From: a virus
Lineage: Duplodnaviria > Heunggongvirae > Uroviricota > Caudoviricetes
Direction: 5' to 3' (one strand)
DNA length: 5,907 nt
Virus record (IMG/VR): IMGVR_UViG_2681813320_000008
Coordinates: 1 to 5,907 of that record
A program made the position numbers and the translations under genes. The notes under the pieces are model-generated. The model saw only the letters and a list, made by a program, of their open reading frames with translations. It had not been told where the DNA came from and made no database searches. How positions within the stretch are numbered: the stretch's first letter is position 1; every line of letters begins with the position of its first letter. This document shows positions 2,257 to 5,875 of the stretch, one piece after another.

Positions 2257-2279
2257 TGTTAGAATAAGACTTATTCTAA
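2257..2279 (+). promoter_or_regulatory. Candidate extended -10 promoter (TGTTAGAAT, 2257-2265) overlapped by a 21-bp perfect palindrome (TTAGAATAAG-A-CTTATTCTAA, 2259-2279), a putative operator for the downstream lipoprotein gene
   Basis: Perfect 10-bp arms with a 1-nt spacer, directly seen; TGnTAGAAT matches the extended -10 consensus TGnTATAAT at 8 of 9 positions; located 19-40 bp upstream of the lipoprotein ATG at 2298, with a possible -35 TTGATG at 2235-2240. Confidence 0.35.
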
Positions 2280-2297: not shown

Positions 2298-2624
2298 ATG
2301 AAAAGAAATCTTCCGTTAATTATTTTGTTGTCTTCTCTGGTTATGGGCTGTACGCAACATAAAACAGATATGCCCCGACAGTTGGTTAAGGCATTACCAC
2401 AATATCCGGCCTATGCAGCGGCAAATTATATAAAGGGACGGGTTGATGTGAGGTTTGATATTGGTGCTGATGGTACTGTCACCCGAATTGAGTTTATTCG
2501 TTCAGAGCCGCACCATCTGTTTGATGAGCAGGTTGTAAAGGCGATGGCAAAATGGCGATTTGAGAAGGACAGGCCGTGTAAAGGCGTGAAGAAAACGTTT
2601 ATCTTTAGTCCTTCTGCGCACTGA
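2298..2624 (+). CDS. Lipoprotein with TonB C-terminal-like domain (phage moron candidate)
   Basis: 108-aa product MKRNLPLIILLSSLVMGC... with basic n-region, hydrophobic core and lipobox-like LVMGC. Mature part carries the TonB C-terminal pattern PQYPAYAAANYIKGRVDVRFDIGADGTVTRIEFIRSEPHHLFDEQVVKAMAKWRFEKD...KKTFIF (YP..A...G.V.V.F.I..DG.V......S...LFD..V..A...W.F). It lacks the proline-rich spacer and N-terminal membrane anchor of true TonB. Start chosen at ATG 2298 (GGGG 7 nt upstream) rather than the track's GTG 2283. Confidence 0.75.
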   Translation: MKRNLPLIILLSSLVMGCTQHKTDMPRQLVKALPQYPAYAAANYIKGRVDVRFDIGADGTVTRIEFIRSEPHHLFDEQVVKAMAKWRFEKDRPCKGVKKTFIFSPSAH

Positions 2625-2755
2625 TTATTTCATCAGAAATTAATTATCACTCTGTTGTTATTCTGTACATCCCGGCAGGGTAAGTATTGTTCCGTCGGAT
2701 ATGAAGATGAAATATTGTTGGAGGACAGTGGGTACCTGCTCCTGTAACCGAACGT

Positions 2756-2956
2756 TCATTTCTCGTTATTTGTCATGCTGGCCGGGCGCAGATGCGTTGC
2801 ATCTGTTGCCAGCCTTCTCCTGCAGGCTTCAATAACCCACGCTGAAAAGTTACCGGACCCTTTATGCTCAAGGGCGATGTTGATCTGTTCAATCATGTGA
2901 TTGGGGAAACGGATATTGCGGGTTGTGGTTCTGCGGGTACGGTTTTTCGATGACAT
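2756..2956 (-). CDS. Small ribbon-helix-helix DNA-binding protein, YlcI/YnfO-like (DUF3950 family) as recalled from E. coli cryptic prophages
   Basis: 66-aa product MSSKNRTRRTTTRNIRFPNHMIEQINIALEHKGSGNFSAWVIEACRRRLATDATHLRPASMTNNEK: basic N-terminus, a beta-strand-like NIRFP followed by two helices (an Arc/CopG-like arrangement). Start set at ATG 2956 with a strong RBS (AAGGA, 7-nt spacer) instead of the track's upstream ATG 3016, which would overlap the HNH gene start. Confidence 0.65.
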   Translation of the reverse strand: MSSKNRTRRTTTRNIRFPNHMIEQINIALEHKGSGNFSAWVIEACRRRLATDATHLRPASMTNNEK

Positions 2957-2997
2957 ATTTATTTCCTTTACTGATTGCCATATGACGGGGATTTTAC

Positions 2998-3363
2998 ATG
3001 GCTGAGCTTCGTACACTCCAGAGCAGAATCAAAACACTGAATACCCGACGGGTGAATATTCTGAAGGGTGAACAGCGTCGTGTCAGTGGCAGTGCACGTG
3101 TTTCCCTCAAGCGTCATATCTGGCTCAGGGATGCCGGGCAGTGCTGTCTCTGTGGTCGTGTGGTTGACCTCTGTGACAGTGAACTCGATCACCGAATTGC
3201 ACTTCAGTTCGGTGGTGGTAATGAGGAGACGAATCTCTGGACGCTCTGTACCGAATGCCATCGACAAAAGTCTGCTCGTGAAGCGGCGAGTGATATGCCG
3301 GACCCGACGCTGCCGGAGGTGTCCGGAGGTAGTGGCAGAGAGGACGACATCATCGGACTGTAA
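2998..3363 (+). CDS. HNH endonuclease, phage packaging-associated
   Basis: 121-aa product with two CxxC pairs (CCLCG, CTEC) and the HNH core DHRIALQFGGGNEETNLWTLCTECH; sits immediately upstream of the putative cos region and terminase genes, the arrangement known for HK97-type cos phages (gp74). RBS ACGGGGA 7 nt upstream of the ATG. Confidence 0.85.
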   Translation: MAELRTLQSRIKTLNTRRVNILKGEQRRVSGSARVSLKRHIWLRDAGQCCLCGRVVDLCDSELDHRIALQFGGGNEETNLWTLCTECHRQKSAREAASDMPDPTLPEVSGGSGREDDIIGL

Positions 3364-3653
3364 CCCGACCCCGGGGGGGTATCATCCGGCGTAAAAAACG
3401 ATCGCTTTGGACACCGCGCCCCCTCTCACGCAGAGAAAAAATTCCCGTTTCAGGGCAGTTAACATGTTAACTGGCTGCCCGGGCATTTTTGCGGTTTTTA
3501 TCTTTATTATTCAGTTTGTTGTGCGGAAAAAATGTTAACAGGCTTTTTCAGCAAATGTTAACCAGGCAGCAGTTAACATTTGCGGCATGAGACGCCGGGA
3601 AAAATGGGCTGAACCATACCCGGCTGAGTGCGTTCTGGACCCGGGAGGAGGCT
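3364..3653. other. Putative cos / packaging-initiation region (non-coding, between HNH endonuclease and terminase small subunit)
   Basis: 290-bp non-coding gap in the position where cos lies in HK97-like and lambda-like genomes; contains a CCCCGGGGGGG tract (3369-3379), A/T-tract-rich, probably bent DNA (3485-3530) and clustered GTTAAC-containing repeats. The exact cosN nick sites cannot be assigned from sequence alone. Confidence 0.4.
3456..3581. repeat. Cluster of five GTTAACAT/ATGTTAAC motifs: an 18-bp perfect palindrome (3456-3473), a solitary copy (3532-3539) and an inverted repeat with 10-bp arms and a 9-bp spacer (3553-3581)
   Basis: Directly seen: CAGTTAACATGTTAACTG (3456-3473) is self-complementary; AAATGTTAAC (3553-3562) and GTTAACATTT (3572-3581) are reverse complements; ATGTTAAC also occurs at 3532-3539. 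Five copies of an 8-mer in 126 bp is far above chance. Function (terminase small-subunit sites, or operator for the RHH protein) is inferred. Confidence 0.6.
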
Positions 3654-4217
3654 GTGCTGACAACGCAAAAACGAAAATTTGCGCTGGCGCTCATGTCCGG
3701 GAAAAACAAAACAGCGTCAGCCATTGCCGCCGGTTATTCGGCGAAGACCGCCAGGGTTAAAGGCTCGCAGCTGGCAAAAGATCCTGAGGTGCTTGCGTTT
3801 ATAGCCCGTAAACAATGCGAGACGGTGGAGGTGGATGAGGTTCCTGTTTACCGGCAGAAAAAATCAGAGCAGGAGGATAAACCCCGTCGCCGTGAGGCGG
3901 CTGCAATACCACAGCCGGACGAAAACAATCCGGAGATGCCACCGTCCGCGGTGATGTCTCCTGGTATTGAATATATGGAGGATGGTCTTCCCGATCCGGT
4001 GAAAGCCATGGGGCGGATCCTGGTGGAAAACCTCTGCATTGATCCGAAACTGGCACTGGATGCGGCCTGGCGTCTGGCGCAGTTCACGCACCATAAAAAA
4101 GGGGATACCGGGAAAAAATCGGCAAAAGGTGATGCCGCGAAAAAAGCGGCTAACCGTTTTGCGGTGCCACCGCCCCCCCGACTGGTGGTGAATAACGATA
4201 ATGAGGGCAACGGATGA
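3654..4217 (+). CDS. terS: Terminase small subunit (Terminase_2-like, N-terminal helix-turn-helix)
   Basis: 187-aa product; N-terminal KRKFALALMSGKNKTASAIAAGYSAKTARVKGSQLAKDPEV fits the TerS HTH pattern (AGYS.KTA); charged low-complexity C-terminus; stop overlaps the terminase large subunit start (ATGA at 4214-4217). GTG start at 3654 with GGAGG 5 nt upstream. Confidence 0.8.
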   Translation: MLTTQKRKFALALMSGKNKTASAIAAGYSAKTARVKGSQLAKDPEVLAFIARKQCETVEVDEVPVYRQKKSEQEDKPRRREAAAIPQPDENNPEMPPSAVMSPGIEYMEDGLPDPVKAMGRILVENLCIDPKLALDAAWRLAQFTHHKKGDTGKKSAKGDAAKKAANRFAVPPPPRLVVNNDNEGNG

Positions 4218-5875
4218 TACCTGTATGGAGCACAGCCTGCCCGGACTGGGCAGAGCGCCTGAAAAAGGGGCTGTCGATTATTCCGGATCCGATTTATCCG
4301 GACGAGGCCGCACATGCCCTGGCGATTTTTAAACAACTGCGGATTGTGGATGCACCTGGTAGCCCTACGTTCGGGGAGTCCTGTGCACCGTGGGTGTTTG
4401 ACCTGGTGGCGGCCCTGTTTGGCTCCTACGATGCGCAGACCGGTGTACGCCATATCAAGGAAGTTTTTATCCTTATCCCCAAGAAAAACTCGAAGTCCAC
4501 GCTGGCCGCGGGGATCATGATGACTGCACTGTTACTGAACTGGCGGCAGGCGGCGGGTTACACGATTCTGGCCCCGACTGTGGAGGTGGCGGCCAACGCC
4601 TTCAACCCTGCCCGGGATATGGTACGACGTGACGATGATCTGGATGACCTCTGCCAGGTACAGACCCATATCCGGACCATCACCCACCGAGTGACGGACA
4701 CCACCCTGAAGGTGGTGGCAGCCGATCCGAATACGGTGTCCGGTATCAAGTCCGTGGGTACGCTGATTGATGAGTTGTGGCTGTTTGGCAAGCAGTGCAA
4801 GGCGGAGGACATGTTACGTGAAGCCATAGGCGGCCTTGCCTCCCGCCCGGAAGGGTTTGTGGTGTATACGACCACCCAGTCGAATGAACCGCCCGCCGGG
4901 GTGTTCAGACAGAAACTGCAGTACGCCCGGGATGTGCGCGACGGCAAAATTCATGATCCGCACTTTCTGCCGGTGATATTTGAACACCCTCCTGAAATGG
5001 TGGAAAGCGGGGCTAACCTGCTGATGGAAAACCTCGCCATGGTCAATCCGAATCTCGGCTATTCAGTGGATGAGGCCTTTCTGTACCGGGAGTACCGTAA
5101 AGCCCGGGAAGCCGGTGAAGAGACATTCCGGGGGTTCATGTCAAAACACGCCAATGTGGAAATTGGTCTTGCCCTGCGCTCTGACCGCTGGGCGGGGGCT
5201 GATTTCTGGGAAGAGCAGGGCCGTTGTATCAGCCTGGACGATATCCTGCGTCGTGCTGATGTGGTGACGGTGGGGATTGACGGCGGAGGGCTGGATGATC
5301 TGCTGGGGATGTATGTGACTGGGCGTGACCGGGAGACCCGCGAATGGCTGGGCTGGGGCCATGCCTGGGCGCATGAAACCGCGGTGGTCCGACGGAAGAG
5401 CGAGGCGTCCCGGTTTCAGGATCTTGTTGCCTGTGGAGATATGACCATTGTCCGGCGTGTCGGGGATGACACGGCGGAAGTGGCGGAATATGTGCGTCGC
5501 ATTCATGAGGCTGAGTTACTGGACCATATCGGTATTGACCCGTCAGGGGTGGGGCAGATTCTGGATTCACTGGCGGAAGCCGGGATCCCCGACGGAATTG
5601 TGGTGGGGATAAGCCAGGGCTGGAAACTGGGCGGGGCCATTAAAACCACCGAGCGCAAACTGGCTGAAGGGGTGCTGGTGCATGGTGACCAGCCCCTGAT
5701 GGCCTGGTGTGTCGGCAATGCCCGGGTGGAGCCTAAAGGTAACGCCATTCTTATCACCAAACAGGCCAGTGGACGGGGAAAAATTGACCCGCTGATGGCG
5801 CTGTTCAATGCGGTCTCCCTGATGTCCCTTAACCCGGAACCGAAAAAGAAAGAATATGCGGTTTTTTTCATATAA
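4214..5875 (+). CDS. terL: Terminase large subunit (Terminase_1 / HK97-like ATPase-nuclease)
   Basis: 553-aa product; Walker A-like ILIPKKNSKST; Walker B-like hydrophobic stretch ending LIDE; C-terminal nuclease-domain pattern (VTVGIDGGGLDDL ... KIDPLMALFNAVSLMS) typical of the family; translationally coupled to terS. Confidence 0.92.
   Translation: MIPVWSTACPDWAERLKKGLSIIPDPIYPDEAAHALAIFKQLRIVDAPGSPTFGESCAPWVFDLVAALFGSYDAQTGVRHIKEVFILIPKKNSKSTLAAGIMMTALLLNWRQAAGYTILAPTVEVAANAFNPARDMVRRDDDLDDLCQVQTHIRTITHRVTDTTLKVVAADPNTVSGIKSVGTLIDELWLFGKQCKAEDMLREAIGGLASRPEGFVVYTTTQSNEPPAGVFRQKLQYARDVRDGKIHDPHFLPVIFEHPPEMVESGANLLMENLAMVNPNLGYSVDEAFLYREYRKAREAGEETFRGFMSKHANVEIGLALRSDRWAGADFWEEQGRCISLDDILRRADVVTVGIDGGGLDDLLGMYVTGRDRETREWLGWGHAWAHETAVVRRKSEASRFQDLVACGDMTIVRRVGDDTAEVAEYVRRIHEAELLDHIGIDPSGVGQILDSLAEAGIPDGIVVGISQGWKLGGAIKTTERKLAEGVLVHGDQPLMAWCVGNARVEPKGNAILITKQASGRGKIDPLMALFNAVSLMSLNPEPKKKEYAVFFI

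Follow-up and report, generated by a model that had tools for sequence, protein, structure and literature searches.

The immI region of phage P22 lies inside the late operon, and one of its proteins, Mnt, is made in the lysogen. Arc and Mnt are small (~50-80 aa) ribbon-helix-helix (RHH) proteins; the phage protein that we describe here is of similarly small size and is predicted to adopt the same fold, and we suggest P22 Arc/Mnt as its closest functional analogy. Another point of reference is the HicB-type antitoxin, whose C-terminal RHH domain (phrog_497) is the best remote profile match of the protein's family. In sequence, the described proteins that resemble it are YlcI (DLP12, b4589) and YnfO (Qin, b4533) of Escherichia coli K-12, ~75-88% identical to it over the first 52 residues, together with more distant DUF3950 proteins of P4-like satellites. 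The YlcI/YnfO family has no established function, as a sequence-only reading of the locus had stated, and this agrees with the 2024 y-ome survey, in which ynfO is among the uncharacterised genes.

The stretch of phage DNA that we analysed (5,907 nucleotides, hereafter the window) carries lysis and moron genes and an HNH-TerS-TerL packaging module, with the ylcI/ynfO-family gene between them on the opposite strand. The following features were identified:

316-849, + strand, endolysin
1408-1959, + strand, Rz
2283-2624, + strand, TonB_C lipoprotein
2756..2956, - strand, ylcI/ynfO-family gene (DUF3950), 66 aa, from the ORF and its translation, Pfam, NCBIfam, PHROG and RefSeq
2756..2803, - strand, variable mosaic C-terminal tail (residues 52-66) and stop codon of this gene; tails differ completely among homologues
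2804..2956, - strand, conserved core of this gene (codons 1-51), with a basic N-terminal arm, a predicted beta-strand T11-F17, helix A 19-32 and helix B 34/37-50
2957..2997, no strand assigned, divergent intergenic spacer of 41 bp containing the ribosome-binding sites of ylcI and HNH, aligned across five HNH-type phages
2963..2968, - strand, Shine-Dalgarno AAGGAA, read from the sequence, 6 nt before the ATG (2956)
2998..3363, + strand, HNH endonuclease, first gene of the HNH-TerS-TerL packaging module and divergent neighbour of ylcI (Pfam HNH E 7e-7; PHROG 589 E 5e-44)
3654-4217, + strand, TerS
4214-5875, + strand, TerL

The earlier description of a 66-aa gene running against late transcription is confirmed, and the gap to the HNH start, 2957-2997, measures exactly 41 bp. 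Its product is MSSKNRTRRTTTRNIRFPNHMIEQINIALEHKGSGNFSAWVIEACRRRLATDATHLRPASMTNNEK. The longest mechanical ORF runs to a GTG at 3016 (86 aa); the 66-aa start is the correct one, since homologues all start with MSS/MST-KNR and the Shine-Dalgarno sequence precedes the ATG at an interval of 6 nt. Phage JLK-2012, 96% identical to the window over 2600-3100, has this 201-nt gene in its RefSeq annotation, and the window also matches Stx-converting phages. A 33-aa ORF at 2658-2759, with an ATGA overlap at the ylcI stop, was considered as a partner gene and rejected: it is not conserved in lambda, where an unrelated 17-codon ORF takes its place.

Several features of the flanking genes were noted in passing. 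A promoter-like site (2238-2279 region) directly precedes the TonB_C-domain lipoprotein gene (2283-2624). Its -10, TAGAAT, is overlapped by a perfect palindrome of 21 bp, TTAGAATAAG-A-CTTATTCTAA (window 2259-2279), which from its sequence looks like a putative operator for this moron. Right after the HNH stop, a C/G homopolymer tract (window 3364-3380) varies in length among related phages. JLK-2012 has a 10-bp deletion near the HNH 3' end, which may explain why its annotated HNH is longer (176 aa vs 121 aa here).

Family membership is straightforward, and the family name given in the sequence-only reading proved correct. The protein matches Pfam PF13132 DUF3950 (E 4.2e-20, 71.8 bits, cut-off 25), NCBIfam NF041551 (YlcI_YnfO_N; 35.3 bits, cut-off 30) and the function-unknown PHROG family phrog_949 (E 2.4e-33), and it contains both motifs expected in the ~50-80 aa proteins of this family, IRF[P] and NFSAWV.[ED]AC. 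Across 28 diverse DUF3950 members, residues R16, I25, F37, W40, V41 and C45 are invariant. The gene is therefore an ordinary YlcI/YnfO (DUF3950) gene. Of 5426 complete E. coli genomes, 1464 contain similar DNA, in up to 8 places per genome, which means that the gene is already known and routinely annotated; among the matches listed, each E. coli genome match carries the annotation 'YlcI/YnfO family protein'. The exact amino-acid sequence of the window protein (100% identity) is encoded in at least 28 IMG/VR contigs. YlcI/YnfO is a narrow family, with 101 clusters (50% identity) among 1.84 billion representative proteins. Its members occupy three settings, namely lambdoid prophages, P4-like satellites and chromosomal sites where the gene stands alone, as in Tatumella, Pantoea and Citrobacter. 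In the literature of evolution experiments, ylcI appears as single polymorphic or mutant base calls in tables, without functional follow-up.

We also noted a 56-aa DUF3950 gene between ORFs recognised by eye as sopB/sigD and pipD in Salmonella enterica subsp. diarizonae and arizonae (L042 and L043, 5001-5171). This is what we take to be the SPI-5 position of 'orfX', putatively the same gene. The orfX gene is reported to be up-regulated in a dksA mutant (PMC8726615).

In all lambdoid prophages examined, the gene is the final one ahead of cos and the terminase genes, and lies on the opposite strand, as do ylcI and ynfO in K-12. The packaging genes that follow are of two unrelated types: an HNH-TerS-TerL (HK97-like) module in the window, JLK-2012, BP-4795, PPyecE and Stx2a_F349, and a Nu1/A type in DLP12, Qin-like, O104:H4 and other prophages, with Nu1-type nohD/nohA in the two K-12 loci. 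The position of the gene is conserved whichever terminase type follows. Its upstream neighbour is HNH or cos/Nu1, and its downstream neighbour varies (TonB_C lipoprotein, ybcW-like, PerC-like, DUF1398 or nothing). Lambda itself encodes a 64-aa homologue at complement(48109..48303) of NC_001416 (2710-2904, - strand, of our lambda locus L083), which is without annotation in that record. The lambda copy points away from cos, lies 199 bp from the right cohesive end between lambdap79 and cosQ/cosN, where the window copy lies between the TonB_C lipoprotein gene and HNH, and differs from the window protein at 3 of the first 49 residues.

Alignment of the lambda-type prophages (lambda, DLP12, an O104 prophage, L086 and L036) revealed that the ylcI core, 200 bp upstream of it and cosN form one highly conserved block, whereas on the cosB/small-terminase side the phages are unrelated to one another, which places the gene right at a mosaic joint. 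A break is also visible at its other end. In the five HNH-type phages aligned, DNA homology breaks at about window 2800, DNA similarity between the window and the lambda-type loci is restricted to 2802-2957, and the C-terminal tail of the window protein differs from those of the K-12 copies. The core (codons 1-51) is invariant or near-invariant across both close and distant homologues. When its 51 codons are compared with the lambda copy, dN/dS is 0.045 at a dS of 1.37, with silent sites near saturation and the protein almost unchanged. The first 51 codons are under strong purifying selection, and the ORF at 2756-2956 is a real gene, far beyond a chance ORF.

The lambda-type loci have an additional feature that sets them apart from the window. 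All of them carry overlapping Fur-box matches (15-16/19) before cosN, ~145-170 bp upstream of the DUF3950 gene, at the following positions:

L083 3048-3072, Fur-box cluster
L171 3090-3114, Fur-box cluster
L085 3306-3330, Fur-box cluster
L086 3287-3311, Fur-box cluster

These boxes correspond to the published 'nohA/nohB' Fur site cluster, of which nohA was gel-shifted (PMC2189734). In DLP12, a promoter-like site over the cluster points towards cos and nohD. The window lacks this cluster: a Fur-box scan of it gave only weak matches of 13/19, with 3 sites seen vs 0.55 expected by chance and none upstream of ylcI. During the search for homologues, we further encountered lambda DNA contigs of ~3.55 kb or 48.5 kb in dozens of assemblies from unrelated taxa (L005-L032, L035, L037-L039, L041, L053 and L064), including Kitasatospora, Cohnella, Flavobacterium, Pseudomonas, Candidatus Nanosynbacter and others. 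Their gene content is 100% lambda bor, Rz and R, and the contigs look like control-DNA contamination.

We consider it probable that the window protein folds as an RHH protein, with the ~50-residue core most likely forming an Arc/Mnt-like dimer. A prediction was set beforehand, placing TTRNIRFP on Arc PQFNLRWP, followed by a 14-residue helix A after the proline, a short loop and helix B. When a profile of 28 DUF3950 members was compared by hhalign with one built from Arc, Mnt and 61 homologues of Arc, the alignment (P 3.9e-4, with a probability of only 35%) placed residues 8-33 on Arc 5-30, which is the register predicted in advance, and matched the strand motif N-x-R-[FW]-P to Arc N11/R13/W14/P15; the Arc query sequence was an end-to-end match to PDB 1arq. 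A PHROG scan pointed in the same direction. Eight of the 28 diverse members matched the HicB-like phrog_497 (best E 9.7e-7; E 0.007 over residues 7-63 for the window protein), and some matched the Arc-like phrogs 228, 582 and 6506 (best E 6.8e-4). All named remote PHROG matches were RHH or repressor families, except for the terminase matches of one satellite protein, P0191, and one weak 'partition protein ATPase' match (0.018).

Structure prediction is consistent with this assignment in part. AlphaFold2 (AF2) monomers contain helices at 19-32 and 34/37-55, whose lengths agree with those of Arc helices A and B, at moderate confidence (pLDDT 67-72), and diversifying the alignment for a second run left that confidence no higher. 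The strand is missing from the monomers, as would be expected for a monomer of an obligate dimer. In a Foldseek search of the PDB, all eight matches were to ParD2 antitoxin (the top match), TCP-domain or 'transcription factor-DNA complex' chains, at non-significant E values of 4-10; ParD2 and TCP are presumably RHH-type. Direct recognition at the sequence level was not obtained. None of 20 family members matched a Pfam RHH model even at E up to 10, neither the window protein nor any of those 20 matched the Pfam Arc model PF03869, BLASTP against Arc gave no alignment, and queries of the PDB by sequence, using either the single protein or the family profile, returned chance matches only, and no solved structure. 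The RHH type proposed from sequence has support, short of proof, from the HicB- and Arc-like profile matches and from two predicted helices of Arc length, and none from a Pfam model or a modelled strand.

These results also define how far the comparison with known systems may be taken. Unlike P22 Arc and Mnt, which the window protein would resemble at the level of the superfamily rather than as a member of the Arc family, it has neither a Pfam Arc match nor BLASTP similarity. The locus likewise differs from immI in having no antirepressor (ant) gene in the window and no operator-type palindrome or repeat upstream of ylcI. In contrast to HicB, the protein is solitary, lacking both the N-terminal domain of HicB and a HicA toxin gene.

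A more informative comparison is provided by the DUF3950 genes of P4-like satellites, which we found in Serratia, Pectobacterium, Xenorhabdus, Klebsiella, Enterobacter, Brenneria, Buttiauxella and other hosts. These satellites encode an integrase, AlpA and a primase, and two of the loci scanned adjoin tRNA genes. Their DUF3950 proteins (L002, L045-L082) share the invariant R16, I25, F37, W40, V41 and C45 with the window protein, and differ from it in being 35-50% identical overall, in a longer inter-helix loop and in other strand residues. Like the window copy, the satellite gene lies on the strand opposite to its neighbours and divergent from the major operon, which in 13 non-redundant P4-like satellites is the primase operon. 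This immunity-like divergent region, with its putative operators, was located as follows:

L002 4480-4714, divergent operator region
L045 4840-5000, divergent operator region
L046-L082, similar divergent operator regions

The leftward promoter of the primase operon reads TTGACG, 18 nt, TAnnnT, and was found independently by a promoter scan in L045. A 12-bp repeat (GGTGCACATACACC in L045) occupies the spacer next to the -35, a second copy follows the -10, usually 23 bp apart from the first, and a third covers the -10-like TATAGT of the DUF3950 gene itself. With the promoter of the early operon bracketed and the gene's own -10 covered, the layout is that of an autoregulating repressor shutting the early operon. 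The sequence of the repeat differs from element to element. Among 13 related elements with operators placed by hand, operators diverged in step with the five predicted strand residues that precede IRF (r 0.64, Mantel p 2e-4) and not with the remainder of the protein (r 0.20, p 0.1); the partial correlations were 0.63 and 0.07, respectively. A Pfam scan of two satellites revealed a DNA-binding domain in just one further gene close to the operators, AlpA. The 12-bp repeats are thus putative DUF3950 operators, although another, unrecognised protein could bind them.

Two further observations concern the same satellites. A conserved hairpin, GTTGTGGTyAGArGCCCGG...CCGGGCTTCGCTATTT, occurs in the 5' leader of the leftward operon in ~20 satellite loci (L045 4840-4885), and no Rfam family matched it at the gathering threshold. 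In one contig only, DUF3950 is fused to a TerS-type N-terminal domain (P0191, L002 4714-5103) that is 69% identical to the N-terminus of the window TerS and matches Pfam Terminase_2 (E 1.7e-6); judged by these domains, P0191 is a possible packaging-redirection protein.

Operators as clear as these 12-bp repeats were not found for the window copy. No operator-like direct or inverted repeats or palindromes were detected upstream of ylcI in the window, in JLK-2012 or in four lambda-type loci. The only k-mer common to the HNH-type and lambda-type flanks, the 11-mer GTATTCAGTGT, was rejected because it is at chance level (~0.2 expected) and is not conserved in BP-4795, PPyecE and F349. Two weak promoter candidates were identified:

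2991..2996, - strand, candidate ylcI -10 TAAAAT, weak, with no good -35, invariant in five HNH-type phages
3058..3086, - strand, candidate ylcI promoter, sigma-70-like CTGACA-17-CAGAAT, weak, inside HNH, 9/12 consensus matches

Conservation of the TAAAAT is confounded by its overlap with the HNH start codon and the HNH ribosome-binding site. The -10 of the 3086..3058 site is destroyed in PPyecE and Stx2a_F349, and a sigma-70 consensus scan of the region returned 4 sites vs 1.9 expected.

Evidence on expression comes from K-12, where ylcI and ybcW form a convergent overlapping transcript pair (an excludon) in at least 50% of MG1655 RNA-seq samples. By analogy, transcription of the gene without induction is plausible, as the sequence-only reading had proposed for the lysogen, with the proviso that these data stem from a K-12 cryptic prophage rather than from this phage, for whose lysogen we infer expression. 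We lean, by a narrow preference, towards a solitary Arc-like repressor made from the prophage. Under this hypothesis, ylcI would be a stand-alone transcription unit placed against late transcription at the junction of the lysis/moron and packaging regions. By analogy with its satellite relatives, its product would be a sequence-specific repressor made in the prophage state. Its N-terminal strand, T11-T12-R13-N14-I15-R16-F17, paired with that of a second subunit, would recognise DNA in the major groove, N14 and R16 corresponding to Arc N11 and R13, and after induction the gene would be silenced by oncoming late transcription. RHH folding and DNA binding by this phage's copy are both predicted in this scheme.

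What such a repressor might act upon has several possible answers, and roles other than repression have to be weighed against it. The sequence-only reading had linked the gene to GTTAAC sites, with the protein regulating packaging genes; cos could be another target. The repeats are real: five ATGTTAAC/GTTAACAT units, including a perfect palindrome, CAGTTAACATGTTAACTG, lie in the HNH-TerS interval (window 3456-3581), with GTTAAC at 3458, 3466, 3534, 3557 and 3572, and the units are invariant in five related phages. A direct pair at 3530 and 3553 has the 23-bp spacing of the satellite operators, the gene is divergent from the packaging module, and P0191 joins DUF3950 to a TerS-type domain. However, lambda-type prophages with a near-identical protein head have neither ATGTTAAC nor GTTAACAT near the gene, and their small terminase is unrelated (Nu1-type). 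In the window, the repeats stand ~500-620 bp from ylcI, past the whole HNH gene and in the cos interval where TerS sites are expected, and they are probably small-terminase (cosB-like) sites, as their placement suggests. Neither the cos sequence of the window nor clusters of ATGTTAAC were found in the satellite loci. Nor was a promoter found in front of HNH, and the late genes of lambdoid phages are transcribed from far upstream. We therefore regard regulation of packaging through these repeats as very improbable, and that claim was not sustained. The suggestion that the protein belongs to an addiction or exclusion system, as an RHH antitoxin or another part of anti-phage defence, fares no better and appears very improbable too. 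Many RHH proteins are antitoxins, and the remote matches of this one include HicB-like antitoxins and, as the top Foldseek match, ParD2. Against this, no conserved partner gene accompanies the family in any context, no neighbour belongs to a toxin family, the overlapping ORF at 2658-2759 is not conserved in lambda, and the window protein and two distant members had no match in PADLOC-DB at E up to 1.

Two other explanations start from the position of the gene and from the distribution of its family. Convergent transcription could itself act as an insulator, an 'excludon' that blocks read-through from lysogen-expressed + strand morons into the HNH-terminase genes, a function that would still allow a role for the protein. 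The rationale is that the cos site of the prophage would be cleaved if these genes were expressed in a lysogen. The window and the lambda-type prophages examined all have a + strand moron immediately upstream, in convergent orientation (the TonB_C lipoprotein gene here; lambdap79/ybcW, a PerC-family or a small hypothetical gene elsewhere). No intrinsic terminator was detected between the convergent genes, and the MG1655 excludon list includes ybcW-ylcI as a convergent pair. Strong purifying selection acts on the amino acids, however, while synonymous sites are near saturation, and it follows that the protein itself is needed. Insulation of this kind would also have no place in satellites or at stand-alone chromosomal loci, both of which harbour members of the family, and BP-4795 and Qin-like loci have no annotated + strand moron adjoining the gene, so that insulation as the main role seems unlikely. 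Distinctly unlikely, too, is the proposal that DUF3950 proteins are master repressors of P4-like satellites on which the lambdoid copies act in trans, either by silencing them (anti-satellite immunity) or by subunit exchange, in which mixed dimers poison the satellite repressor and serve as a helper signal. The family is common to lambdoid phages and P4-like satellites of Enterobacterales, the predicted helix-B segment NFSAWV.[ED]AC is almost unchanged from context to context at an overall identity of 35-50%, and no cis target was found in the phage itself. On the other side, the proposal is inferential throughout. The strand motif of the phage copy, TTTRN, matches no motif seen among the satellites, the satellites found came from hosts other than E. 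coli, and the conservation of helix B may simply be a consequence of the fold. A solitary Arc-like repressor made from the prophage thus remains the reading that we marginally favor.

The gene in the window is a routine annotation, and its family was already known. The analysis matters only through that family, whose members YlcI and YnfO are still uncharacterised in K-12 and of which lambda carries an unannotated copy. If a DNA target were shown, a function would be gained for a conserved gene of the best-studied phage. The satellites provide a testable entry point to this question, with putative operators defined, specificity residues predicted and a clear target promoter.
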